Shown: positions 7,604 to 62,277 of the stretch, one piece after another
Position numbering within the stretch: position 1 is the first letter of the stretch
Layout of the letters: each line of letters starts with the position of its first letter
Assembly (NCBI GenBank): GCA_965261245.1
Contig: OZ253446.1
Span: 1,233,300-1,297,299, forward strand
Direction of reading: 5' to 3'
DNA length: 64,000 nt
From: Spirochaetia bacterium
Lineage (GTDB): Bacteria > Spirochaetota > Spirochaetia > G963692905
Position numbers and translations under genes: made by a program
Notes under the pieces: generated by a model
What the model was told of the DNA's origin: nothing
Database searches by the model: none
What the model saw: the letters and a program-made list of their open reading frames with translations, nothing else

Positions 7604-7754
7604 GGGGGCGCGCTGCCCCCCTCGCTGCAGCCAGCGTGCCCCGCGCAACGCGGGGCACCAGTGCGCTAACCCGCGCTTGCGCGGGTTACGGGCTCACTCC
7701 CGCTCGCCCGCCGCACACTTCGCCGTCTTCCGCTACCCCCCGGCGCTTCTGTAA
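7604..7754 (+). repeat. Intergenic structured repeat, family A, copy A1
   Basis: Shares GGGGGGCGCTGCCCCCCTCGCTGCAGCCAGCG..[hairpin]..CAGTGCGCTA..[hairpin]..TACGGGCTCACTCCCGCTCGCCCGCCGC..CTTCCGCTACCCCCCGnCGCTTCTGTAA with 17305, 34360, 57432 and 62128 (reverse). Confidence 0.85.
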
Positions 7755-7935
7755 CAGCATGCGTCCCCCCCGCGGAAACAAAGCGTAATGCGCCGTCACC
7801 ACGGCGCCAACAACAGACGCTACCCCCCGCCGCTTTCGTAATAGCATGCGCCCCCCCCTGCGGAAACAAAGCGTAATGCGCCGTCACCACGGCGCCAACA
7901 ACAGACGCTACCCCCCGCCGCTGTTGTAAAGCAGA
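7732..7935 (+). repeat. 87-88 bp tandem reiteration (about 2.3 units) of the family-A tail module
   Basis: GCTACCCCCC starts at 7732, 7819 and 7907. Each unit contains AAGCGTAATGCGCCGTCACCACGGCGCC. Confidence 0.8.
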
Positions 7936-10948: not shown

Positions 10949-11250
10949 TGGTTAATATTTTTGAGGCACTAAAGGGCATGAAAGACATGCAGAAACACCT
11001 CTCCTCGATTCGAGTAGAGGGACGGGCGGGAGGCGATATGGTTATTATCGCTATCGACGGCAAATTTCAGCCGAAGAAGGTTACGATATCGCCCGAGGCC
11101 CTGGAGAACAAAAATCCCGAATTTGTTGCAGACCTGGTATCATCCGCCCTGAAGGATGCGGTGAGCAAGGTGCAAAGTGAACTGCAAGCGCGTCTTGGCG
11201 GCGGGGCCGGCGGGTCGATGCTGCAAGGCATGTTTGGCGGCGGCGGATAA
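10948..11250 (+). CDS. ybaB: Nucleoid-associated protein YbaB/EbfC
   Basis: 100 aa. Start overlaps the dnaX stop (TAATG). Canonical dnaX-ybaB-recR order. Confidence 0.85.
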   Translation: MVNIFEALKGMKDMQKHLSSIRVEGRAGGDMVIIAIDGKFQPKKVTISPEALENKNPEFVADLVSSALKDAVSKVQSELQARLGGGAGGSMLQGMFGGGG

Positions 11251-11253
11251 ACC

Positions 11254-11847
11254 TTGAACAGCATTCAGCGCCTGACGGAGCTGCTTGCCCGCTTCCCGGG
11301 GATTGGGCCCAAGAGTGCGCAGCGGTTGGTGTATTATCTGTTAAATACAGACAACAGTTATAACCAGCTGTTAGGCAAGGAAATTGGCGTCCTGCAGGAC
11401 AACATCAAGCGGTGTTCGCGGTGTAACTATTTTACCGAGGTAGATCCCTGTAATATCTGCACCGATATGCAGCGTGACCACAGTGTCCTCTGTGTGGTTG
11501 CCGCCCCCCAGGATGTCGAACAACTGGAAGCCAGCAGGGAGTATAACGGCGAATACCATGTTTTACAGGGATATATATCGCCGCTGCGCGGGCTCGGGCC
11601 GGATGAAATCGGCGGCCCGCGGTTGTACCAGCGGGTACGGGAACAGAAATATAAAGAGGTAATACTTGCCACCAATCCCACCGTGGAGGGCGAAACCACC
11701 GCCCTGTATTTGGCAAAACTACTGGATGATCTATCCGTACAGATTACCCGCCCCGCCATGGGGCTGCCGGTTGGCGGCGACCTGGGGTACACGGACAGAC
11801 AAACCATTGCCCGCTCCCTGCAGGATAGACGCTCCCTGGCCCACTGA
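11254..11847 (+). CDS. recR: Recombination protein RecR
   Basis: HhH N-terminus (FPGIGPKSAQRL), C4 zinc finger (CSRCNYFTEVDPCNIC), Toprim (ILATNPTVEGETTA). TTG start. Confidence 0.9.
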   Translation: MNSIQRLTELLARFPGIGPKSAQRLVYYLLNTDNSYNQLLGKEIGVLQDNIKRCSRCNYFTEVDPCNICTDMQRDHSVLCVVAAPQDVEQLEASREYNGEYHVLQGYISPLRGLGPDEIGGPRLYQRVREQKYKEVILATNPTVEGETTALYLAKLLDDLSVQITRPAMGLPVGGDLGYTDRQTIARSLQDRRSLAH

Positions 11848-17304: not shown

Positions 17305-17458
17305 GGGGGGATACCCCCCTCGCTGCAGCCAGCGTGCCCCGCCTGCGCGAGCGCAGCCGCGGCACCAGTGCGCTAACCTGCTGCGCAGGTTACGGGCTCA
17401 CTCCCGCTCGCCCGCCGCGCACCTCGCTGTCTTCCGCTACCCCCCGTCGCTTCTGTGA
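17305..17458 (+). repeat. Family A repeat, copy A2
   Basis: Aligned by eye to A1. The tail motif GCTACCCCCCGTCGCTTCTGT recurs 88 nt downstream at 17524. Confidence 0.85.
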
Positions 17459-17725
17459 AGATATTAAGTCATCCACAAGAGATTGAAGCGTAATGCGCCG
17501 CAAAGGCGACGCCAATAAACAGACGCTACCCCCCGTCGCTTCTGTCTGCTTGTTGGCGCCGTGGTGACGGCGCATGGTTTTTTACCAACACTGGGGGGGG
17601 TTTGGCACCGCATACATCGCCGGCGGTGTACTTGCTGAAATACACCGCCATTGATTACACCCGCCATCTATCTGATAGACGCCGGCTTTACGCTGGCATT
17701 GCTACCAATTTGGTTGGTTATGGGA

Positions 17726-19075
17726 TTACTGGCATATGCTGCTACTGCATGAGCCACTGACACAATCGAAATTGTTAAAGCAAGCACCTCCTGTCTCACG
17801 AAGGCACGTGCCAATACTACTGCAAGCTAGCGAGGTATTGCAATGGTCGTTAAGCCGGCAAATACTTCCGATCATGCCAGTGGTGCTCGTGCATATTAGA
17901 TTGGAAGTCACGGTGGCACATATCAACGGGCTGGTGCATTGAATATCCCTTTGGCAAGCACCTCCGGACACAACAGTACCCGCCTGACTGCATACCTGGC
18001 TACCAGACGCTCCGGTACATATCAAACTACCAACACATGCATCGTCGGTAGTACATGTAGCCCCGGCCGCTATCCCGCACGCACCGCTCCCGCATACCAG
18101 GGCACCGTCACAGTGGTCATCGTTACCGCACACACTCCCGCCCAGGCCAGTGCCTGCCGTACTGCATACCTGACTACCGGTTGCACCGGTGCATATCAAC
18201 GGGTCGGTACATTGGTCATCGTCACTGCACGCATCATCAGCCATGCCGGCAGAGCATGTACCAGACCCACAGGTCAAACTACCGGCGCAATCGTCGTTGA
18301 CGCTGCAAGCAGCACCGGCTATTGCCCCGCATGCTCCGTTGCCGCAAATCAGCGGGCTGGTACAGTGGTCATTGGTGCCGCACACACTTCCAGTGGAACC
18401 GGTGCCTGCCTGGCTGCATACCTGACTACCGGATGCACCGGTGCATATCAAATCACCAGCACATGCGTCATCGGCAGTACATGTACCGCCGGCAGCTATT
18501 CCGCACGCACCGTTTCCGCACACTAGCGGGCTGGTACAATGGCTATCGATACCGCAAACACTCCCGTTCGCACCGGTGCCTGCTTGACTGCATACCTGAC
18601 TACCAGACGCGCCCGTACATATCAGCGCGCCGGCGCATTGGTCATCGACACTGCATGCATTGCCCGCCGCTATGCCGCATATACTATCACTGCCGCAAAT
18701 CAACGGCGCGGTGCACTCATCATTGGCATTACACATATCCCCGACATTGCCCCCAGGGCCGCCAGAGCAGGCCCCGATTTCACACATCAGGCCATCCGCG
18801 CAATGGCTATCGATACCGCACAAGGTACCGACCATGCCGTTACCGGCTTGCCTGCATAGCTTGTTATCAGATGCTCCCGCGCATATCAGACCGCTGACAC
18901 ATTCGTTATCCACCGTACAGGCATCACCTTCGGCTACGTTACTCCTGCCGCCTCCTCCATTGCCGCTGGTAGCGGCATCACAGCCGGCTATAACCAGGGG
19001 CAGGGCAATGATTGCACATACGGCAATTATTGCACTACATACACCAATTCGCGGTGTGCGTATTATATTATACAT
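17726..19075 (-). CDS. Cys-rich tandem-repeat lipoprotein (8-Cys modules of about 55 aa)
   Basis: Lipobox LVIAGC. About eight repeats of C-x5-C-x5-C-x8-C..C-x5-C-x5-C-x4-C (e.g. CTADDACAGDLICTGASGSQVCSQAGTGSTGSVCGTNDHCTSPLICGNGAC). Confidence 0.75.
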   Translation of the reverse strand: MYNIIRTPRIGVCSAIIAVCAIIALPLVIAGCDAATSGNGGGGRSNVAEGDACTVDNECVSGLICAGASDNKLCRQAGNGMVGTLCGIDSHCADGLMCEIGACSGGPGGNVGDMCNANDECTAPLICGSDSICGIAAGNACSVDDQCAGALICTGASGSQVCSQAGTGANGSVCGIDSHCTSPLVCGNGACGIAAGGTCTADDACAGDLICTGASGSQVCSQAGTGSTGSVCGTNDHCTSPLICGNGACGAIAGAACSVNDDCAGSLTCGSGTCSAGMADDACSDDDQCTDPLICTGATGSQVCSTAGTGLGGSVCGNDDHCDGALVCGSGACGIAAGATCTTDDACVGSLICTGASGSQVCSQAGTVVSGGACQRDIQCTSPLICATVTSNLICTSTTGMIGSICRLNDHCNTSLACSSIGTCLRETGGACFNNFDCVSGSCSSSICQ

Positions 19076-19239
19076 AATTGTATACCTCTCTTTGTATATT
19101 TAGAAAATTTTTCTTTATAGTTGACAACGAACCGGACGGCCGTGATGTATGAATAATAGTTCTGGCAGCACTGCTGAGATGAGAGAAATATATTTTTAGT
19201 GAAAAAAGCGGTGTATTTAGTACACTATTTTTACTGACT

Positions 19240-19260
19240 GGGGGGGGGGGGGGGGGGGGG
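19240..19260. repeat. Homopolymer G21 (C21 on the coding strand of the downstream gene)
   Basis: Counted directly. Ends 164 nt upstream of ATG 19075 and lies downstream of the promoter at 19365-19394. Confidence 0.95.
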
Positions 19261-19364
19261 TAAGTAGTGGTATAATAAGGACATAAAGCGATAATTTTAT
19301 AGCATTATACACGCTTTCCAAACGTGATGCGGTGGCTTTACACGCTACACTACTCACAATATAT

Positions 19365-19394
19365 ATTATAGCATACATTTTCGGGGGCTGTCAA
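19365..19394 (-). promoter_or_regulatory. Consensus promoter TTGACA-N18-TGc-TATAAT for the Cys-rich lipoprotein gene (about 285-nt leader)
   Basis: Perfect -35 and -10 hexamers on the minus strand. Confidence 0.55.
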
Positions 19395-19433: not shown

Positions 19434-20666
19434 TTACGGCAGAGTCGATACGGCGCCGTATAACCCTCCTGTGTTATTTGTGCCGATCCCCACCGTTACC
19501 CATTGGGTATTGGCATAATGGACGGCTAATAGTTCGTTGCTTGTACCGCTTGTGTCTCTTGTCCACATCGCGCCGTCCGTACTGGTGATTATGGCTCCTA
19601 CCCGTGTTTCGTTGCTGTTTATATCGTATCCCACCGCTACCCATTGGCTGTCGGCATAGTGGACATCAAGCAGCGCGCCGCTGACGTCGTTTGTCTGTGC
19701 CGTCCATGTGATGCCGTCGGAACTGGTACTTATGGCTCCACTGGTATTCCCCAGGCCGTCTATGTTGTTTCCCACCGCTACCCATAGGGAGTTAGCGTAG
19801 TAGATATCCCATATTCCGCCGTTTATATTGCTTACCCGCCCTGTCCACGCGGCGCCGTCCGGGCTGGTGGTTAACTCTCCCGCGTCGCCCGCGGCTGCCC
19901 ACAGGGAGTTGCCAAAGTATACAGTTCGCAGCCTATCGGTGGTATTGCTGGTCTGCGCTGCCCACGTTGTACCGGTTGCGCTGGTTGTTATGGCCCCGCT
20001 GGTGATGTCTCCCATGCTGTCTGTATTGGTTCCCACCGCAACCCATAGGGAGTTATCGTAATGGACGGCCGAGAGGGTACCGCGGGTTATATTACTGGTC
20101 CCCGCCGTCCACGTCCCCGTGCCGTTTGCGCTGGTTGTTATAACTGCGTTATCGCCAACCGCAACCCATAGGGAGTTGGCGTAGTGTACGTCAGACAACC
20201 CGCCGGTTACACTGCTTGTCTGGGCCGTCCATGCGGTGCCGTTCACACTGGTGCTTATACCTGCGTTGGCATCTACCATTACCCACAGGGAGTTGTCGTA
20301 GTGGATATCGAGTATTGTCCCCAGTGCGTTTGTTGTCCGCGGCGTCCATTCGGCGCCGTCGGGACTAGTGGCGGCACTCCCGGTTCCCGCCGCCACCCAC
20401 AGGGAGTTAGCGTAGTGGATAACCCGCAGGAGGCTCCCGACAGTATTACTTGTCTGCGCCGTCCACGTAGCCCCGGTTTCATCGTCCTCAACCACCCCCG
20501 GGGGGCCTTGGGGACCTGTTGGACCCGTCGGGCCTGCTGGGCCTGCCGGACCCGCCAGGCCTGCCGGACCTGTTAAACCCACTGGACCAGCTGGTCCGAC
20601 GCAGGCGGTTATTAGTACTGCGCCGCCTAGCAGCAGCGCGGTTGCTATTCTCACTATTCTATTCAT
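19434..20666 (-). CDS. Lipoprotein with collagen-like G-X-Y stalk and BNR/Asp-box beta-propeller repeats
   Basis: Lipobox LITAC. GPAGPVGLTGPAGLAGPAGPAGPTGPTGPQGPPG stretch. About 9 repeats of W..TS....L..VHYANSLWVAVG....ITTS.DG..W. Start trimmed to ATG 20666. Confidence 0.75.
   Translation of the reverse strand: MNRIVRIATALLLGGAVLITACVGPAGPVGLTGPAGLAGPAGPAGPTGPTGPQGPPGVVEDDETGATWTAQTSNTVGSLLRVIHYANSLWVAAGTGSAATSPDGAEWTPRTTNALGTILDIHYDNSLWVMVDANAGISTSVNGTAWTAQTSSVTGGLSDVHYANSLWVAVGDNAVITTSANGTGTWTAGTSNITRGTLSAVHYDNSLWVAVGTNTDSMGDITSGAITTSATGTTWAAQTSNTTDRLRTVYFGNSLWAAAGDAGELTTSPDGAAWTGRVSNINGGIWDIYYANSLWVAVGNNIDGLGNTSGAISTSSDGITWTAQTNDVSGALLDVHYADSQWVAVGYDINSNETRVGAIITSTDGAMWTRDTSGTSNELLAVHYANTQWVTVGIGTNNTGGLYGAVSTLP
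20496..20597 (-). repeat. Collagen-like (G-X-Y)11 coding repeat
   Basis: Uninterrupted Gly-every-third-residue stretch directly after the lipobox Cys. Confidence 0.8.
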
Positions 20667-20672
20667 GCCTGT

Positions 20673-20702
20673 ATTGTAACCCATATGCACAAACAGCGTC
20701 AA
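20673..20702 (-). promoter_or_regulatory. Promoter TTGACG-N18-TACAAT, 6 nt from ATG 20666 (leaderless candidate)
   Basis: Hexamers and spacing read directly. No SD. Confidence 0.5.
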
Positions 20703-20777
20703 TATTTTAGAGGGGGATCGCCCCCCTCTCGTCGCCACCGGCCACGCCCAGAGAGAGTGCCCACCGGGGCACTACAG

Positions 20778-30785: not shown

Positions 30786-31880
30786 TTACAGCGCTTTCTC
30801 TGATTGAGGATCAAAGAGAGTGATATGCTCCGACTCGACCGCCAGTTTTACCTTCTGGCCGGGTTTATGGGCAGATCTCGGCTCCACACGGGCAATCATC
30901 TGCTGCTTGTTCACCAGCACATAGAGATGCGTCTCGGCCCCAAGGGGTTCGACAATATCGATAACCGCCTCAAAGGTCGACCCTTGTTTGCTCTGGGTAA
31001 CATCAAGGATGTTCTCAGGACGCACGCCGAAGATTAACTTCTTGCCGCCGTAGCCTTTGGCTTTTTTGGCAAGATCGCCGTCAAGTTTAAGCTGAAAGCC
31101 GCCGTCGCCGCTCAGTGATACCGAGCTTCCGCTGACTGTGACATCCAAATTGAGGAAGTTCATTGGCGGGGAGCCGATAAACCCGGCAACAAAGCGGTTG
31201 TTGGGGTTGGCGTATAGGTCTAATGGACTGCCGATTTGCTGTACTTTTCCGTCGCGCATAACAACGATTTTGTCGCCCATAGTCATGGCTTCGACCTGAT
31301 CGTGTGTTACGTAGATCATGGTCGCCTGCAGGCGGTTGTGCAGCGATGAAATCTCGGTACGCATCTGTACCCGCAGTTTTGCATCAAGGTTCGACAGCGG
31401 CTCGTCAAAGAGAAAAACCTTTGGCTTACGGACTATTGCCCGCCCTACCGCTACACGCTGACGCTGTCCACCGGAGAGCTGCTTTGGTTTACGGTGAAGA
31501 AGGTTGCCCAGCTCAAGAATCTTTGCAGCCTCTTGTACCCGTGACTCAATTTCTTCTTTCTTGAATTTACGAATTTTTAGTCCGAACGCCATGTTGTCAT
31601 AGACAGACATGTGCGGGTACAGGGCGTAATTCTGAAATACCATAGCAATATCACGGTCTTTCGGCGGGATATCGTTCACCACCTTACCATCAATGGTCAA
31701 TTCACCGGAGGTAATATCCTCCAAACCCGCAATCATGCGCAGACATGTTGTCTTGCCGCATCCCGAGGGACCAACTAAAACAACAAACTCACGATCGGAT
31801 ATAGAAACGTCAATTGCATCAACCGCAGTAACATCACCGTCGTATACTTTCGTCAACTTACTTAATTCTAAATTCGCCAT
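30786..31880 (-). CDS. Sugar ABC transporter ATP-binding protein (MalK/UgpC/MsmX type)
   Basis: Walker A GPSGCGKTT, signature LSGGQRQR, Walker B FLFDEPLS, C-terminal TOBE-like domain. Confidence 0.9.
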   Translation of the reverse strand: MANLELSKLTKVYDGDVTAVDAIDVSISDREFVVLVGPSGCGKTTCLRMIAGLEDITSGELTIDGKVVNDIPPKDRDIAMVFQNYALYPHMSVYDNMAFGLKIRKFKKEEIESRVQEAAKILELGNLLHRKPKQLSGGQRQRVAVGRAIVRKPKVFLFDEPLSNLDAKLRVQMRTEISSLHNRLQATMIYVTHDQVEAMTMGDKIVVMRDGKVQQIGSPLDLYANPNNRFVAGFIGSPPMNFLNLDVTVSGSSVSLSGDGGFQLKLDGDLAKKAKGYGGKKLIFGVRPENILDVTQSKQGSTFEAVIDIVEPLGAETHLYVLVNKQQMIARVEPRSAHKPGQKVKLAVESEHITLFDPQSEKAL

Positions 31881-31886
31881 GAGAGA

Positions 31887-31947
31887 ATTATGACATATCT
31901 GCAGAAGTCATGCAAGCGTTTTTACAAAAAATTTTTAAAATTTTTTT
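31887..31947 (-). promoter_or_regulatory. Promoter TTGCAT-N17-CATAAT, 6 nt from ATG 31880, with an A/T-phased upstream element
   Basis: Hexamers at 31915..31910 and 31892..31887. A6T5A4T7 block at 31926-31947, 10 nt upstream of the -35. Confidence 0.5.
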
Positions 31948-34338: not shown

Positions 34339-34359
34339 GCGTCAAGGCGGGTTTTATAT

Positions 34360-34518
34360 GGGGGGGGCGCTGCCCCCCTCGCTGCAGCCAGCGCACCCAC
34401 CTGCGCGAGCGCAGGCGGGTACCAGTGCGCTACCCACGCCCTGCGTGGGCACGGGCTCACTGCCGCTCGCCCGCCGCGCACTTCGCTGTCTTCCGCTACC
34501 CCCCGTCGCTTCTGTGAA
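34360..34518 (+). repeat. Family A repeat, copy A3
   Basis: Aligned by eye to A1. The tail motif recurs at 34637. Confidence 0.85.
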
Positions 34519-34699
34519 GATATTAAGTCACAGGTAGTGCATCAATTCCGAAGGCGCTGTTTGCATACACGACAGCAATACCACGCCAACCCAATATCAA
34601 TGTATGGTGCACCGCCCACGCGGTGCCAAAAACCAGCGCTACCCCCCGGCGCTTTTGTAAAGCATGCGTCTCCCACGCGGCAACAGGGATTGGGAGACA

Positions 34700-37037: not shown

Positions 37038-38132
37038 TTACGGTGCAGTTGTCATGGTGCCGCCCGCTGCTACCCATAGCCCGTTGGCGTAATGGATATC
37101 CAGGAGTCCAGCGCTCACGTTACTTGTCTGTGCCGTCCATGCGGCACCGGTTACGCTGGTGGTTATGTCCCCCGCTCCCCCTCCAACCGCTACCCATAGG
37201 GCATTGGCATAGTGGATGTCAAATAACCCGCCGGTTACATTGCTTTCCTGCGGTGCCCATGTGCTGCCGTCTGCGCTGGTGGTTATGTCCCCGTCTTCCC
37301 CGACCGCTACCCATAGGTTATTGGCGTAGTATACGGCTTCCAGTTTACCGCTCACATTGCTTGTCTGCACCGCCCATGCGGTACCGTCTGTGCTGGTTGT
37401 TATGGCGCCGCTGGATACTGTATTTCCCATGTCGGTTACGCTGGCTTGACCAACCGCTACCCATGAATTATTGGCATAGTGGACGTCGTCCAGTGAGGTA
37501 TTTACATTGCTTGTCTGCGCCGTCCATGCGGTGCCGTTTGCACTGGTTGTTATGACTCCGTTCTCCCCAACCGCTACCCATAGGGTATTGGCATAGTGGA
37601 CGGCAAGCAGGGAGTCGCTCACGTTGCTTGTCTGCGCTGTCCATGCGGTGCCGTTTGCACTGGTGATTATGCCGCCGTCTGCTCCCACCGCTACCCATAG
37701 ATTGTTGGCATAGTGGACATCGGATAGGTTGCCGGTTACATTGCTGGTTTGTTCCATCCATTCGGTGCCGTCTGCACTGGTGATTACGTCTCCGCCGTCA
37801 CCAACCGTTACCCATAGGTTATTGGCATAATGGACGTCGCGCAGGTGACCGCTTGCATTGCTCATCTGCTGCTTCCATTCGGTGCCGTTTGCACTGGTGG
37901 TGATGCCTCCTGTGTTTATTGTGGTCCCCGTGTTGGTGACTCCCACCGCTACCCATAGGTTATTGGCATAATGGACGGCAGTTAGCCCGCCGGTCACACC
38001 GCTTACCCGTGCCGTCCATGTGGTGCCGGTTGGATCCTCGCTTGGTTGCTCGTCTGGGCAACCGATTAGTAGTATGCTGCTAATTATTATGGCCAGTAGC
38101 AAAGCCGCCGTTTTTATAAGGTATTTACTCAT
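37038..38132 (-). CDS. BNR/Asp-box beta-propeller lipoprotein
   Basis: Lipobox LLIGC. About 8 repeats of W..QTSNV...L.DVHYANNLWVAVG..G.ITTSA(D/N)GT.W. Start trimmed to ATG 38132. Confidence 0.75.
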   Translation of the reverse strand: MSKYLIKTAALLLAIIISSILLIGCPDEQPSEDPTGTTWTARVSGVTGGLTAVHYANNLWVAVGVTNTGTTINTGGITTSANGTEWKQQMSNASGHLRDVHYANNLWVTVGDGGDVITSADGTEWMEQTSNVTGNLSDVHYANNLWVAVGADGGIITSANGTAWTAQTSNVSDSLLAVHYANTLWVAVGENGVITTSANGTAWTAQTSNVNTSLDDVHYANNSWVAVGQASVTDMGNTVSSGAITTSTDGTAWAVQTSNVSGKLEAVYYANNLWVAVGEDGDITTSADGSTWAPQESNVTGGLFDIHYANALWVAVGGGAGDITTSVTGAAWTAQTSNVSAGLLDIHYANGLWVAAGGTMTTAP

Positions 38133-38138
38133 ATATAC

Positions 38139-38167
38139 ATTATACCACGGGAAAGGAATTTTGTCAA
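38139..38167 (-). promoter_or_regulatory. Consensus promoter TTGACA-N17-TATAAT, 6 nt from ATG 38132 (leaderless candidate)
   Basis: Perfect hexamers. Only GTATAT separates the -10 from the ATG. Confidence 0.6.
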
Positions 38168-38214: not shown

Positions 38215-38517
38215 CTACCCAAGAAACTGATAGATACTAACCAGCACCGCGAGTAACGCAACCCCGAATGCACCAAACCACCGCAAACTAGCAAAGTTCT
38301 TGTCGGTTCTGTCCATATGGCGCGTGAAATCCTGACGCAGGTGCTTTATCTCTTCTTCAACCCGAATCATGCGTTCCACGATCCGCATATCTCTGGAAAA
38401 CCCTGTCCCACTGTCTGCAGCGTAGCTGGCGGTGTTTGCGTGCATTTGCTGTGTTATCAGGGGAACCAGTTCGGTAACCAGCGCTTTTTTGTCTGCTTTC
38501 GTTAACGCTTGAGCCAT
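38215..38517 (-). CDS. Small coiled-coil protein with C-terminal TM anchor
   Basis: 100 aa. C-terminal helix WFGAFGVALLAVLVSIYQFL. No family recognised. Confidence 0.5.
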   Translation of the reverse strand: MAQALTKADKKALVTELVPLITQQMHANTASYAADSGTGFSRDMRIVERMIRVEEEIKHLRQDFTRHMDRTDKNFASLRWFGAFGVALLAVLVSIYQFLG

Positions 38518-57403: not shown

Positions 57404-57431
57404 CTGGGAATATAGAGAGAGGGGTGTATGC

Positions 57432-57586
57432 GGGGGGCGCTGCCCCCCTCGCTGCAGCCAGCGTGCCGCGCCTGCTTCGCAGCCGCGCCACCAGGCGGCT
57501 ACCCACGCGCGCGTGGGTACGGGCTCACTCCCGCTCGCCCGCCGCCGCCTTCGCTTGCTTCCGCTACCCCCCGGCGCCTCTGTAAA
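57432..57586 (+). repeat. Family A repeat, copy A4
   Basis: Aligned by eye to A1. Confidence 0.85.
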
Positions 57587-57691
57587 GCATGCGTCACCCA
57601 CGCGGTAACAGAGCGTAATACACCGACAGCGAGTGCAGCCGACGTTGTGCGGTACCAAAAACAGCTATATTTTACCATACTTTATTGGTAT

Positions 57692-57750
57692 AAAAAATTT
57701 TTAAAATTTTTTGCCAAAATACTTGACAAGAGAAAATTATATGCTATAAT
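57692..57750 (+). promoter_or_regulatory. Promoter TTGACA-N16(TGc)-TATAAT with upstream A6T5A4T6 block (about 285-nt leader to ATG 58041)
   Basis: Perfect hexamers at 57723-57728 and 57745-57750. The A/T block at 57692-57712 lies 10 nt upstream of the -35. Confidence 0.6.
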
Positions 57751-57866
57751 TATTACTGTTATGGTTAGAGTGGTGCACAAAACAGGTTTGTTGCGACGCA
57801 ACGCAAGCGCTATGACTGGTATTTCCTCCGTAAATCCTGGTAATCGCTGGACTAATCTCTCGCTTA

Positions 57867-57875
57867 CCCCCCCCC
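57867..57875 (+). repeat. Homopolymer C9 in the leader of the FN3-repeat lipoprotein gene
   Basis: Counted directly. Ends 165 nt upstream of ATG 58041. Confidence 0.9.
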
Positions 57876-58040
57876 GCAGAGATGCCGCAGCGGTAGATAA
57901 CCCGCTCTCACTAATATCATATATCTCACATCCCTATAACATCTCTGGGGATACTAATACACCCCGGGTGTCCGCGCCCGATGCAAACGCCCCGCACAAG
58001 TTCGAAAACACTTATATATATAGAGAGGAGATATACGATT

Positions 58041-60434
58041 ATGTATAATATAATACGTACCATACGTAACATTACACCGAGACCCGGTGTACTAACCGCC
58101 TGTGCGGCAGTGTTTGCCGTCCTGGTGCTATCGCTGGTAATAGCCGGCTGTGAAGAGACCATTGTCCAGGAAGTCGGCGAGGGCGTCCCGCCTGCACCGA
58201 TAAGCATATCAGTAGCCCCCGGACAAACCAACGACAGCGTCGTTATAACATGGACCGACCCCACGGATGCCGATTTTTCGCATGTGTTTTTGTACTGGAC
58301 ACCGGCAATCGCCGGCGTGGAACAGCCCCTACGGGTAGAAAAAGGCGTTGAAACCGCAACCATCACGGGGTTATCGGGTGGAGATTACATATTCACCGCC
58401 GCTACCGTGGATACCGCAGGTAATATATCGGAGACAAGCGCACGCGTGCGCGGCGGTGCAGATGTTGCTCCGCCAGGTGTAGTAACCCCGACAGCAACCG
58501 CCGCAGTAGGCGGGAGCGTGGATGTAACCTGGACCGATCCCTCCGACGAAGATTTTTCACATATTCTTTTATCATGGACTCCGGCTACCCCTGGTGACAA
58601 CCAGCCGCTCCGTATAGATGCCGGTATACAGGCCGCTAACGTGACCGGTTTGGCCGACGGAACATATATGTTTACGGCAACAAGCGTAGATGCTGTCGGC
58701 AATCAATCGGTTGCCAGCGCCGCGTCCTCGACAACCACAGATGGAACCGCTCCCGCTGCCGTTACCGCCACTGCCGCCTCAGGAGATAACAGTGCCATAA
58801 CATTAACCTGGACCGATCCCACCGAAACCGATTTTTCACATATTCTAATATCCTGGCCCGATGGAAACGGCGGGAATCTTACATCACCGCTGCAGATCGC
58901 TAGCGGTACAGAAACGGCAACCGTCATGCACTTTACTCCCGGTAGTATTGAATTTACGGTAGAGTCCGTAGATAATGCAGGAAACGTAGCCTCCAGTACC
59001 GTTACCGGTACGGCCACAGCAGATATGACGGCACCAGCCGGGGTAACCCTGACGGCTGCCGCCGCAGCAGGCGGTGCCCGGATTACCTGGACCGATCCCA
59101 CCGATTTTGATTTCTCGCATATTCTCTTGTCATGGATGACCACCGGGGGCACAGCTGAATCGCGCCGCGTAAATAAAGATATAGAGACGGCTACAGTTAC
59201 CGGATTGACCGATGGTGCCGCCTATATGTTCACCGCCAAGAGCGTTGATTCTGCAGGTAACGAATCGGCTGTCAGTACGGCGGCAAGCGTAACCGTAGAT
59301 ACGGCTGTGCCTGCCGTTACTGGTATCAGTGCAACAGCAGGAGTGGGAAGTGCAACCATAACGTGGACCAATCCCACCGCTGCTGATTTCAGACACGTCG
59401 ATATTACATGGTCACCGATACTTGCCGATCAGACGCAGCCAGTGCGGAGGATGGGATCGGGGGCGAATCAGACGTTGGTGCTGACTGGTCTAACCAGCGG
59501 TACGCTATATACTATTACCGTAACATCTGCTGATACCCTTGGGAACGAAGCAACCGCTACGGCTACCGTAACGCCCACTGCTACTGCCTCCCCTGCGGTA
59601 ACTGCTGCAGCGACAACGCGAATAACCCCTGCCGGTGGCACTACTGTGACCTGGACCGATCCAAGCGATACGAGTGGAATATCTAAAATAGAGATAACTG
59701 GATTACCAGCCCCAACTACTGCGATAATGGCGATGGTTGGTGACGAAACCGCAAACATTACCGGGCTCAATCCAAACATCAATCATACCATCATGATTTC
59801 AATCCTTGATAGCTCTAATGTTGTTACCAATGTAACCGCAGTAACTGCCAACGCCACACTGCCGGTTGCTCTCTTTAGTCTAGGAGCTGTCGACGGAGAT
59901 TTTGGTTTTGCAGCATGTAACAATGCACTTACTACCGGCACGGGCGCCGCGGTAACGGCTATGCGCACCGCGGGCTACTCTAAGGCGGTATTCTTCGGAT
60001 CAAGAGGCGGTACAGATGCGTATGATTTTATCGATCTTGCAACTAATGTTAATGCACTTGGGTTCAGCAGCACTGCTAATGCAACCCAGCTTGAAGCGCG
60101 GCCGGTTGTAGTCTATACCAGTGCTAATCCCACTACCACTTTCGGATCCCCGCTCGTATCGCGCACCATCGGCAATGTCGTGAATGTTGCTCCTGGAGGA
60201 GGATGGCAGAATGACGGGTATACTGTGGTTGACGACCTTACTACTAGAAGTTTTTGGTCATTCACCGCTAATCAGCGGCTAGGAAATTCACATTGTAACA
60301 ACGCTACCAGTAGGGCGTTTCAGGGAGTTGCAGGCATAACGGGAGGCTCTGCTGCCATTGATGGTATTGCCACTGGTAGTACTAGTTTCTCCGGCTGCAA
60401 CGCTGCCCGTACTGTAATCTGCGCCGCCCACTAG
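58041..60434 (+). CDS. Lipoprotein with six FN3-like tandem repeats and a Cys-containing C-terminal domain
   Basis: MYNIIRT.. N-terminus, lipobox VIAGC. Six units containing TWTDP.D.DFSHILLSW...G...A.VTGL.DG.Y.FT..SVD..GN.S. About 190-aa C-terminal domain with 4 Cys. Confidence 0.75.
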   Translation: MYNIIRTIRNITPRPGVLTACAAVFAVLVLSLVIAGCEETIVQEVGEGVPPAPISISVAPGQTNDSVVITWTDPTDADFSHVFLYWTPAIAGVEQPLRVEKGVETATITGLSGGDYIFTAATVDTAGNISETSARVRGGADVAPPGVVTPTATAAVGGSVDVTWTDPSDEDFSHILLSWTPATPGDNQPLRIDAGIQAANVTGLADGTYMFTATSVDAVGNQSVASAASSTTTDGTAPAAVTATAASGDNSAITLTWTDPTETDFSHILISWPDGNGGNLTSPLQIASGTETATVMHFTPGSIEFTVESVDNAGNVASSTVTGTATADMTAPAGVTLTAAAAAGGARITWTDPTDFDFSHILLSWMTTGGTAESRRVNKDIETATVTGLTDGAAYMFTAKSVDSAGNESAVSTAASVTVDTAVPAVTGISATAGVGSATITWTNPTAADFRHVDITWSPILADQTQPVRRMGSGANQTLVLTGLTSGTLYTITVTSADTLGNEATATATVTPTATASPAVTAAATTRITPAGGTTVTWTDPSDTSGISKIEITGLPAPTTAIMAMVGDETANITGLNPNINHTIMISILDSSNVVTNVTAVTANATLPVALFSLGAVDGDFGFAACNNALTTGTGAAVTAMRTAGYSKAVFFGSRGGTDAYDFIDLATNVNALGFSSTANATQLEARPVVVYTSANPTTTFGSPLVSRTIGNVVNVAPGGGWQNDGYTVVDDLTTRSFWSFTANQRLGNSHCNNATSRAFQGVAGITGGSAAIDGIATGSTSFSGCNAARTVICAAH

Positions 60435-62014: not shown

Positions 62015-62127
62015 GAATTCTGGTTATCGGAACTGTGCGGACGCCGCAGTGCCGCGGTGTACCCGAGACTTCGACAAGCTCAGTCTACTATCTACTGTAA
62101 TCTCTGATGACTGGAAGTAGACGCGTG

Positions 62128-62277
62128 CTTTACAACAGCGACGGGGGGTAGCGGAAGACGGTGAGAGCGGCGGCGGGCGAGCGGGAGTGAGCCCGTACCC
62201 ACGCGCCCGCGCGTGGGTAGCCGTTCGGTGCCTGCGCGAGCAGGCACGCCGGCTGCAGCGAGGGGGGCACCCCCCCT
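62128..62277 (-). repeat. Family A repeat, copy A5 (reverse orientation)
   Basis: The reverse complement aligns to A1. Flanked at 62069-62083 by CTTCGACAAGCTCAG. Confidence 0.85.

Follow-up and report, generated by a model that had tools for sequence, protein, structure and literature searches.

Introduction

In the vlp genes of Mycoplasma hyorhinis, a conserved 5' region comprising the promoter, a simple sequence repeat, the Shine-Dalgarno (SD) sequence and the prolipoprotein signal peptide is joined to divergent, repetitive mature parts, and the genes switch independently through a poly-A tract in the promoter spacer. The poly-C tract of Neisseria meningitidis siaD is intragenic, and its frameshifts go along with Rho-dependent premature termination. 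In Treponema pallidum, the poly-G tracts of tprE/G/J, tprL and tp0126, which range from 7 to 11 G within strains, are placed between the -35 and -10 elements or directly 5' of the transcription start site (TSS; PMC7864442), and further variable repeats are on record for M. catarrhalis uspA1 (G(n)), H. pylori tlpB/RepG, M. tuberculosis espR (poly-G) and H. influenzae hmw/RNase III (PMC7302503, PMC8295292, PMC11898584, PMC12721329). Here we analyze a 64,000-nt stretch of the genome of a Spirochaetia bacterium (contig OZ253446.1, positions 1,233,300 to 1,297,299; hereafter the window), in which two lipoprotein genes with unrelated mature parts lie behind 5' regions of the same build, each with a poly-C tract in its leader. 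We give a probability of about 0.5 to the reading that this tract mediates phase variation by slippage within a near-leaderless upstream open reading frame (uORF) that is translationally coupled to the lipoprotein gene. On this reading, the 5' region is a modular expression cassette that a Treponema-like spirochaete lineage uses for its surface lipoproteins.

The locus resembles vlp in that a lipoprotein multigene family carries a conserved 5' region and signal peptide on divergent mature parts. Unlike vlp, which has no uORF, its 5' region is itself modular. As in siaD, poly-C slippage would lead to a premature translation stop with a proposed effect on the downstream RNA. The siaD tract, however, is part of the structural gene, whereas here the structural gene would stay untouched and the frameshift would be confined to a leader ORF that is not conserved. 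Coupled leader peptides and uORFs of the ATGA or TAATG kind offer another likeness, as their stop codon overlaps the downstream start, and the openness of the frame is conserved while the peptide is poorly conserved. Classical leader peptides respond to metabolites, antibiotics or the charging state of tRNAs; by contrast, the input here would be a heritable and reversible change in DNA length.

With T. pallidum, the locus shares a spirochaete host, G/C homopolymers of at least 7 nt upstream of genes for surface or outer-membrane proteins, and polymorphic tract length (PMC7864442). The T. pallidum tract belongs to the untranscribed promoter, where it occupies the -35/-10 spacer or overlaps the -10 element with the TSS ~4 nt downstream (PMC7864442). 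By contrast, the tract in our leaders is found 73-116 nt downstream of a consensus -10 element, inside an ORF. The repeats of uspA1, tlpB, espR and hmw are closer in position, being variable repeats in the transcribed leader of a surface or virulence gene that result in graded or on/off expression. They act via mRNA level, structure, small RNA (sRNA) pairing or processing, and none of them has been described in a translated uORF that ends on the main start. Hence the ingredients are already known: homopolymer phase variation (also in treponemes), conserved 5' cassettes of lipoprotein families, repeats in 5' untranslated regions (5' UTRs), and stop/start coupling. In the literature that we searched, no contingency repeat was described inside a coupled, non-conserved leader ORF, and no switch module was described as reassorting at the repeat itself.

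Results

Two unrelated lipoprotein genes share a 5' cassette

The window has a G+C content of 56.7% and encodes ordinary bacterial housekeeping proteins (LigA, DnaX and ManA). The FN3/DUF4959-repeat lipoprotein gene (58041-60434, + strand) encodes 797 amino acids (aa) with a signal peptide and the lipobox VIAGC (Cys37); the Cys-rich repeat lipoprotein gene (17726-19075, - strand) encodes 449 aa and has the same lipobox. We refer to their 5' regions as leader A and leader B, respectively. As an earlier sequence-only reading of this DNA had claimed, both products start with MYNIIRT and have unrelated mature parts, built from FN3/DUF4959 repeats in one case and from Cys-rich DUF7107/Dickkopf-like repeats in the other. 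Their signal peptides are 59% identical. The near-identity of the nucleotides around the SD and start codon, part of the same claim, is reflected in the 20-mer ATTATGTATAATATAATACG, which occurs exactly twice in the window (0 expected from shuffles); among 185,579 species genomes, it has just three chance matches, all in unrelated taxa.

For comparison, we used relatives' DNA from one assembly of the European Nucleotide Archive (ERZ26694059; loci L004, L005, L006, L007, L008, L129 and L130), in which L007 carries three leaders (L007-1, L007-2 and L007-3) and L130 two (L130-1 and L130-2). Its contigs have 2-5x coverage and several fragmented genes, and single-base details, homopolymer lengths above all, are provisional. 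Homologues of the FN3 lipoprotein are 94% (P0001, on L004) and 81% (P0002, on L005) identical to it. The 90% cluster of its closest homologue includes a 797-aa member from a 2,343,434-bp (2.34-Mb) record, which is evidently the genome of the window and in which the lipoprotein has at least 13 paralogues. Farther homologues are annotated as 'Spirochaetia bacterium' or 'Treponema sp.'. A homologue of the Cys-rich lipoprotein, P0129, has the same type of signal peptide.

Both leaders begin with a perfect TTGACA/TGcTATAAT promoter, as had been reported. In cassette A, an AT-rich, UP-like element (AAAATTTTTAAAATTTTTTGCCAAAATAC; 57686-57722, + strand) precedes the -35 element, and its stretch through AAAATACTTGACA is common to L005, L006 (two copies) and L129. 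Promoter A (57723-57750, + strand) is of the sigma-70 type with an extended -10 element: TTGACA occupies 57723-57728, the spacer measures 16 nt, and TGCTATAAT ends at 57750. It matches the two hexamers at 12 of 12 positions, in addition to the TG, and is 98% identical in L005. In promoter B (19365-19394, - strand), TTGACA occupies 19394-19389, the spacer measures 18 nt, and TGCTATAAT ends at 19365. Promoters A and B are two of just three perfect -35/-10 pairs in the 64 kb. The promoter spacers, 16-18 nt long, are free of repeats and thus differ from the repeat-bearing spacers of vlp.

Downstream of the promoter, each leader falls into two segments, one from the -10 element to the tract (segment 1) and one from the tract to the ATG (segment 2). 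In leader A, segment 1 is a hypervariable module (57751-57862, + strand) followed by CTTA (57863-57866) and C9 (57867-57875), which together form the junction (57863-57875) to the 165-nt segment 2 (57876-58040). The latter contains a pyrimidine block (TATATCTC, 57920-57927) and the SD (AGAGAGGAG, 58022-58030). In leader B, on the - strand, CTTA (19264-19261) and C21 (19260-19240; G21 on the + strand) occupy 19240-19264, and segment 2 (19068-19239) carries the SD AGAGAGG at 19091-19085. All distances given by the sequence-only reading were reproduced: 290 (A) and 289 (B) nt from the -10 element to the ATG, 165 and 164 nt from the end of the tract to the ATG, and 116 and 104 nt from the -10 element to the tract, the last of which, relative to the only consensus promoter, places the tract outside the promoter position of the T. 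pallidum tracts. The sequence-only reading had judged the remainder of both leaders to be unrelated. This is not supported for segment 2, which aligns significantly (z = 7.3, reached by 0 of 500 shuffles), whereas segment 1 does not (z = 1.0). At 9 and 21 nt, the two tracts beside these genes exceed the ~7-8 nt from which a homopolymer counts as long enough to slip. G/C runs of at least 8 nt are altogether enriched in the window, with 12 observed against 5.2 +/- 2.4 expected under a first-order Markov model.

An upstream open reading frame runs through the tract to the lipoprotein start

Upon close examination of the leaders, we noticed an ATG or GTG 7-10 nt past the -10 element in all long leaders; none of these starts has an SD. 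In leader A, the ATG lies 10 nt past the -10 element and opens uORF A (57761-58048, + strand), which comprises 95 sense codons, reads through the tract as CTT ACC CCC CCC C.. (Leu-Thr-Pro-Pro), and ends with a TAA (58046-58048) that overlaps the lipoprotein start (ATGTATAA). The CTT-ACC-CCC frame through the tract recurs in A, B, L007-1, L007-2 and L129. The uORF of L007-1 starts with a GTG 9 nt past the -10 element, traverses C9 and stops with a TAA at +5 of the lipoprotein gene. L007-2 combines an L007-1-type segment 1 and C9 with a different segment 2 of 67 nt, and its uORF stop forms TAATG with the start codon. L007-3 is a deletion variant without the tract, whose uORF nevertheless stays in register up to the TAA at +5. 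Relative to the main ATG, the uORF thus stops at +5 or -2 in A, L007-1, L007-2 and L007-3: the overlap has the form of ATGTATAA, with TAA at +5, in A, L007-1 and L007-3, and of TAATG in L007-2. L129 likewise has a TAA at +5 of ATGAATAA, up to which the Leu-Thr-Pro-Pro frame is open from the tract onward. As a caveat to this overlap, a second stop, at +10 in the other frame, is present in the AT-rich start region.

Leader B appears as an out-of-frame version of the same arrangement. As sequenced, uORF B (19217-19357, - strand) starts with a GTG (19357-19355) 7 nt past the -10 element, reads CTT ACC (CCC)6, and terminates after 46 codons at a premature TAA (19219-19217), which follows the tract by 21 nt. 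To enter the frame that leads on to the lipoprotein start, it would need one C more or two C fewer; the register would be restored by C22 or C19, of which C22 agrees with the alignment to L007. In segment 2 of leader B, the frame that ends with the TAA at 19070-19068, which overlaps the start region of the gene (ATG at 19075), is open throughout. The uORF of L005 is also out of frame past its interrupted tract, and the tractless L130-2 has a 54-codon uORF that starts with a GTG 9 nt past the -10 element and ends just 5' of the SD.

To judge these frames against chance, we kept the start region and SD fixed, shuffled the interior, and determined how often an ORF that starts near the promoter would extend to a stop that overlaps the main ATG. 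The resulting P values are 0.017 (A), 0.005 (L007-1), 0.042 (L007-2) and 0.19 (L007-3), and in all four leaders such a uORF is observed, that is in 4 of the 7 leaders tested. The coupling frame of segment 2 has no stops in A, B and L007-1, as against 2-6 in each other frame (2 and 4 in A, 4 and 2 in B); the probabilities of it being open are 0.05 (A), 0.019 (B) and 0.014 (L007-1). Segment 2 of B differs from that of L007-1 by indels of -3, +4 and +2 nt, the sum of which is a multiple of 3. Between the +4 and the +2 indel, homologous bases are read in different frames, and both sequences stay open. This pattern points to selection on the leader being translatable up to the start codon, with the peptide sequence itself under little selection. 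We regard the uORF as well supported but not proven, because the tests were devised after the pattern had been seen and the lineages are few.

Two further observations concern ORFs at this position. On L007, a gene caller annotated the uORF together with upstream non-coding DNA as a 118-aa protein (11038-11394) that ends on the lipoprotein start. On L006 (13766-13810; the same in L008), a gene with a short leader has a 10-codon mini-ORF, MYCCCKKGDI; it begins 6 nt past the -10 element, and 5 nt separate its stop from the lipoprotein ATG. ORFs that lie close to the promoter and abut the main start may thus be common to the family in general, with or without a long leader.

Two other genes of the window start directly behind their promoters

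The third perfect promoter of the window (TTGACA, 17 nt, TGgTATAAT; 38130-38167, - strand) serves a lipoprotein gene whose ATG at 38132 (MSKYLIKTAALLLAIIISSILLIGC) is 6 nt past the -10 element and has no SD. The same geometry is found at 31878-31946 (- strand), where an UP-like element (31913-31946), TTGCAT, 17 nt and TGtCATAAT are followed 6 nt past the -10 element by the ATG at 31880 of a 364-aa ORF, again with no SD. Two such genes behind extended -10 elements make leaderless initiation plausible in this genome, and leaderless mRNAs appear to be used there. By the same geometry, the uORF starts would be 0-4 nt from the expected TSS. The list of ORFs extends the MSKYLIKTAALLLAIIISSILLIGC lipoprotein gene upstream to a TTG at 38294, probably wrongly.

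Leader segments reassort at the tract

The sequence-only reading had taken the equal promoter-to-ATG distances and the constant tract position, with the 12-nt tract difference offset by the upstream segment, as properties of the cassette. The relatives do not bear this out. In homologous leaders, the -10-to-ATG distance is 265 (L005), 283 (L007-1), 182 (L007-2), 172 (L129), 115 (L007-3) and 195 (L130-2) nt, such that the full span is 115-290 nt. Because homologous leaders differ in spacing, we rejected the hypothesis of a constant spacing; the 290/289 match and the 12-nt 'compensation' are best read as coincidence.

By contrast, the proposal of a portable 5' cassette with a variable C tract is supported. 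CTTA followed by poly-C is also present in L007 (two copies) and L129, and tract length differs between related sequences with conserved flanks, with the caveat that the assemblies are of low coverage: C21 in B corresponds to C9 in L007-1, and C9 in A to an interrupted C5TC9TC at the same place in L005, while L129 has C7. The parts of the cassette are an UP element, an extended -10 element, a start codon 7-10 nt on, segment 1, CTTA plus a C tract (C7, C9, C21 or interrupted), segment 2 and the SD; the lipoprotein itself begins with Met-Tyr-Asn or Met-Asn-Asn.

Pairwise comparison of the leaders reveals that segments 1 and 2 reassort independently and that the C tract is their junction. A and L005 are 98% identical in the promoter and 100% identical in segment 2, whereas their first segments show background similarity (0.58). 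Segment 2 of A is also partly present in L004. L005 and L129 are alike in segment 1 (0.85) and not in segment 2. L007-1 and L007-2, 1.4 kb apart on the same locus and placed before a Cys-rich lipoprotein and an FN3-type lipoprotein, respectively, are 91% identical across promoter, segment 1 and CTTA-C9, and diverge completely past the C tract, where their second segments differ; one promoter-segment 1-C9 unit thus precedes unrelated lipoprotein genes. Segment 2 of B, finally, is 76% identical to segment 2 of L007-1.

Not every gene with this type of start has the tract, which qualifies the cassette as originally conceived. Genes on L006 and L008, which begin with MYNIVRK or MYNMLRT, share the UP/-35 element (AAAATACTTGAC) and the SD/start region and have leaders of 41-51 nt with no tract. 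L130-1 has the same element (AAAATACTTGAC) and a tractless short leader too, the range of short leaders in L006, L008 and L130-1 being 22-51 nt. It follows that the long leader is an optional inserted module rather than an obligatory companion of the start region. Two long-leader members, L007-3 and L130-2, lack the tract. In metagenomes, TTGACR-N5-6-AAAATATATGCTATA matched more than 120 generic consensus promoters of AT-rich, unrelated organisms; a C tract accompanied none of them.

Several details of the assemblies bear on how these lengths are to be read. The L004 contig, which carries the 94% homologue, ends (at its position 1) within the leader, 103 nt 5' of the ATG, and family genes on L008 (5441-11659) are split into several ORFs. 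Both breaks are consistent with error-prone, low-coverage assembly around repeats and homopolymers, and single tract lengths therefore carry limited weight. The FN3 lipoprotein is itself a mosaic: its N-terminal ~130 residues are nearer to the 81% homologue, with whose leader its own leader is identical, and the remainder is nearer to the 94% homologue. Such mosaicism suggests that alleles or paralogues have recombined, in the manner of antigenically variable families. A trap for annotation lies at 57981 (57981-58040), where an in-frame ATG gives an 817-aa ORF that buries the signal peptide.

Leader folding

The folds of the whole leaders are not more stable than those of shuffled sequences (z = -0.9 for A and -1.3 for B). 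In the minimum free energy (MFE) folds of A, B and L007-1, the pyrimidine block TATATCTC pairs with the SD. We demoted masking of the SD to a possibility: when the sequence upstream was shuffled, SD accessibility was not significantly higher (A 0.07, B 0.03; not significant in three others). Neither leader has a match in Rfam at gathering or permissive thresholds, and within the 64 kb of the window Rfam detected no sRNA.

Discussion

A model for switching through a coupled leader frame

The arrangement of these elements suggests how tract length could be linked to lipoprotein output. The consensus extended -10 promoter would fire, and the transcript would begin within a few nucleotides of the ATG or GTG, leaving the uORF leaderless or nearly so. 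Ribosomes would then translate a uORF that spans the whole leader and crosses the poly-C, read as Thr-Pro-Pro..., at the joint of the two exchangeable segments. With the frame kept, as in leader A with C9, they would arrive at the stop overlapping the lipoprotein start (as ATGTATAA here and as TAATG in one relative). There they would initiate anew, or would leave the SD region accessible and the RNA shielded. Upon slippage by a length that is not a multiple of 3, the state that leader B with C21 would represent, the uORF would end 21-30 nt past the tract and ~140 nt of leader would be left untranslated. Lipoprotein output would change in consequence, be it that coupling is lost, that Rho-type polarity sets in, or both. 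Poly(C) is, classically, the preferred substrate of Rho. A secondary idea is that the pyrimidine block (57920-57927 in A) may mask the SD until the uORF is translated.

In this scheme, the position of the TSS, the translation of the uORF and the variation of the tract within a population are predictions from sequence. The same applies to how strongly, and in which direction, the lipoprotein would be affected, and ON and OFF could be inverted if ribosomes on the uORF occlude the SD. The proposal in its full form is that a heritable, reversible poly-C switch in a near-leaderless, non-conserved uORF gates a lipoprotein family, and that the module is portable and recombines at the tract. We advance it tentatively, as somewhat less than an even bet. 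A fusion of the uORF to the lipoprotein by frameshifting was considered and rejected, the lipoprotein frame having stops early in segment 2.

Several observations weigh against this model. The uORFs start 7-10 nt past the -10 element rather than 6 nt, as in the two clear leaderless genes, and initiation could be inefficient on a 5' end of 2-4 nt or from a GTG. With AGAGAGGAG and AAGGAGG, the lipoprotein genes also have strong SDs, so coupling may modulate expression in a graded way rather than gate it, or may even repress it. In L129, the promoter-proximal ATG ORF stops before the tract. Sequestration of the SD by the conserved pyrimidine block is not significant relative to shuffles. Each segment is represented by about three independent lineages, and the frame hypothesis was formed post hoc. 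The in-frame or out-of-frame calls for B and L005, finally, could be sequencing errors, as they concern homopolymers in assemblies of unknown or low accuracy.

Other roles for the tract

The tract lies between the promoter and the ATG and so is transcribed, and it might act as RNA in an untranslated 5' UTR, through folding, RNase processing, a G-rich sRNA or Rho loading, with the open frame being incidental. Its location, 104-116 nt 3' of the only recognizable promoter and 67-168 nt 5' of the ATG, would suit such a role, and so would the affinity of Rho for poly(C) and the MFE folds of A and B, in which a conserved block is paired to the SD. Moreover, 5'-UTR homopolymers are known to control expression in this manner (PMC8295292, PMC12721329, PMC11898584, PMC7302503). 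However, the folds are no stabler than shuffles, masking of the SD is not significant, Rfam yields no match, and an RNA-level role leaves three things unexplained: the absence of stops from one specific frame, the compensating indels, and the stop that overlaps the ATG. We consider it unlikely on these grounds, if the most serious competitor of the coupled uORF. It is distinctly unlikely, in our judgment, that the tract is instead a promoter element of the tprE/G/J, tprL and tp0126 type, whose length would tune a second, tract-proximal promoter that drives the lipoprotein gene while the upstream consensus promoter serves something else. The names of homologues make the organism look treponeme-related, and in T. 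pallidum poly-G tracts do modulate the transcription of outer-membrane protein genes (PMC7864442). Yet a promoter scan and inspection found no sigma-70-like hexamer pair flanking the tract in A, B, L005, L007 and L129, and we rejected a second promoter around the tract for want of convincing hexamers. The tract, moreover, is always 73-116 nt past the consensus promoter, and promoter, segment 1 and tract travel as a unit; the uORF statistics would also go unexplained.

At the level of the peptide, the poly-C might mainly cause stalling on poly-proline, or be prone to frameshifts, within a regulatory leader peptide rather than act as a DNA-level switch; lipoprotein expression would then be sensitive to elongation factor P (EF-P), tRNA-Pro or translation status. 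Leader ORFs with proline codons and CCC-C slippery sites are established, for instance in mgtP and in frame maintenance by EF-P and m1G37. Five of our leaders do read the tract as consecutive CCC proline codons in the uORF frame, and the uninterrupted tracts are multiples of 3 with one exception (C9 three times, C21 once; C7 in L129). Against this stand the mere two or three prolines that C9 yields, the two tractless long-leader members (L007-3 and L130-2), and the length differences between homologous leaders, which are what slippage predicts. As the principal function of the tract we find this improbable; stalling can, however, coexist with the coupled uORF. The 5' regions might, lastly, have no regulatory role and merely reflect the shared ancestry of duplicated sequences, with a neutral tract that is prone to slippage or marks recombination junctions and with distances that are equal by coincidence. 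The distances are indeed coincidental, the family clearly duplicates and recombines its 5' ends, and its short-leader members work without a tract. But at least five leaders, although their flanks have otherwise diverged, retain the tract at one and the same junction, the open frame is maintained, and tract-bearing cassettes are associated only with surface lipoproteins, all of which makes neutrality very improbable.

Implications

If the coupled-uORF model is true, the coupled leader ORF would be a third position for contingency repeats, beside the textbook ones in promoters and coding sequences. It would allow a spirochaete with a small genome to switch many unrelated surface lipoproteins by one transferable module while their coding sequences stay intact. 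The model predicts that expression depends on tract length modulo 3. It also has consequences for annotation, as gene callers miss such uORFs, call them hypothetical proteins (as on L007) or over-extend the lipoprotein ORFs (as with the 817-aa version), and it bears on how homopolymer 'errors' in long-read assemblies of spirochaetes are read.

Other repeats in the window

Two paralogous lipoproteins (19434-20738 and 37038-38132, both on the - strand) contain many copies of a repeat of ~35-40 aa (..HYANSLWVAVG..TS.DG..WT..), and in one of them the lipobox is followed by a short stretch of collagen-like Gly-Pro-X. Both are probably members of another surface-protein family of the organism. Besides the two tracts, the ten other G/C runs of at least 8 nt are located at 1228, 2347, 6332, 7851, 17593, 30263, 34360, 38802, 43938 and 51866, and some runs of this length fall within a dispersed intergenic repeat. 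This repeat, which is ~100-200 nt long and contains GCTACCCCCCGnCGCCTCTGTAAAGCATGCGTCACCCACGCGG, has ~80% identity between copies. It is found at 57404-57650, directly 5' of cassette A, and at several other intergenic sites (7605-7798, 17305-17460, 34357-34519 and, on the - strand, 62120-62276), as well as in the relatives (L005 9312-9610, three tandem copies; L004 4201-4349). It resembles a repetitive extragenic palindromic (REP) element or a miniature inverted-repeat transposable element (MITE).

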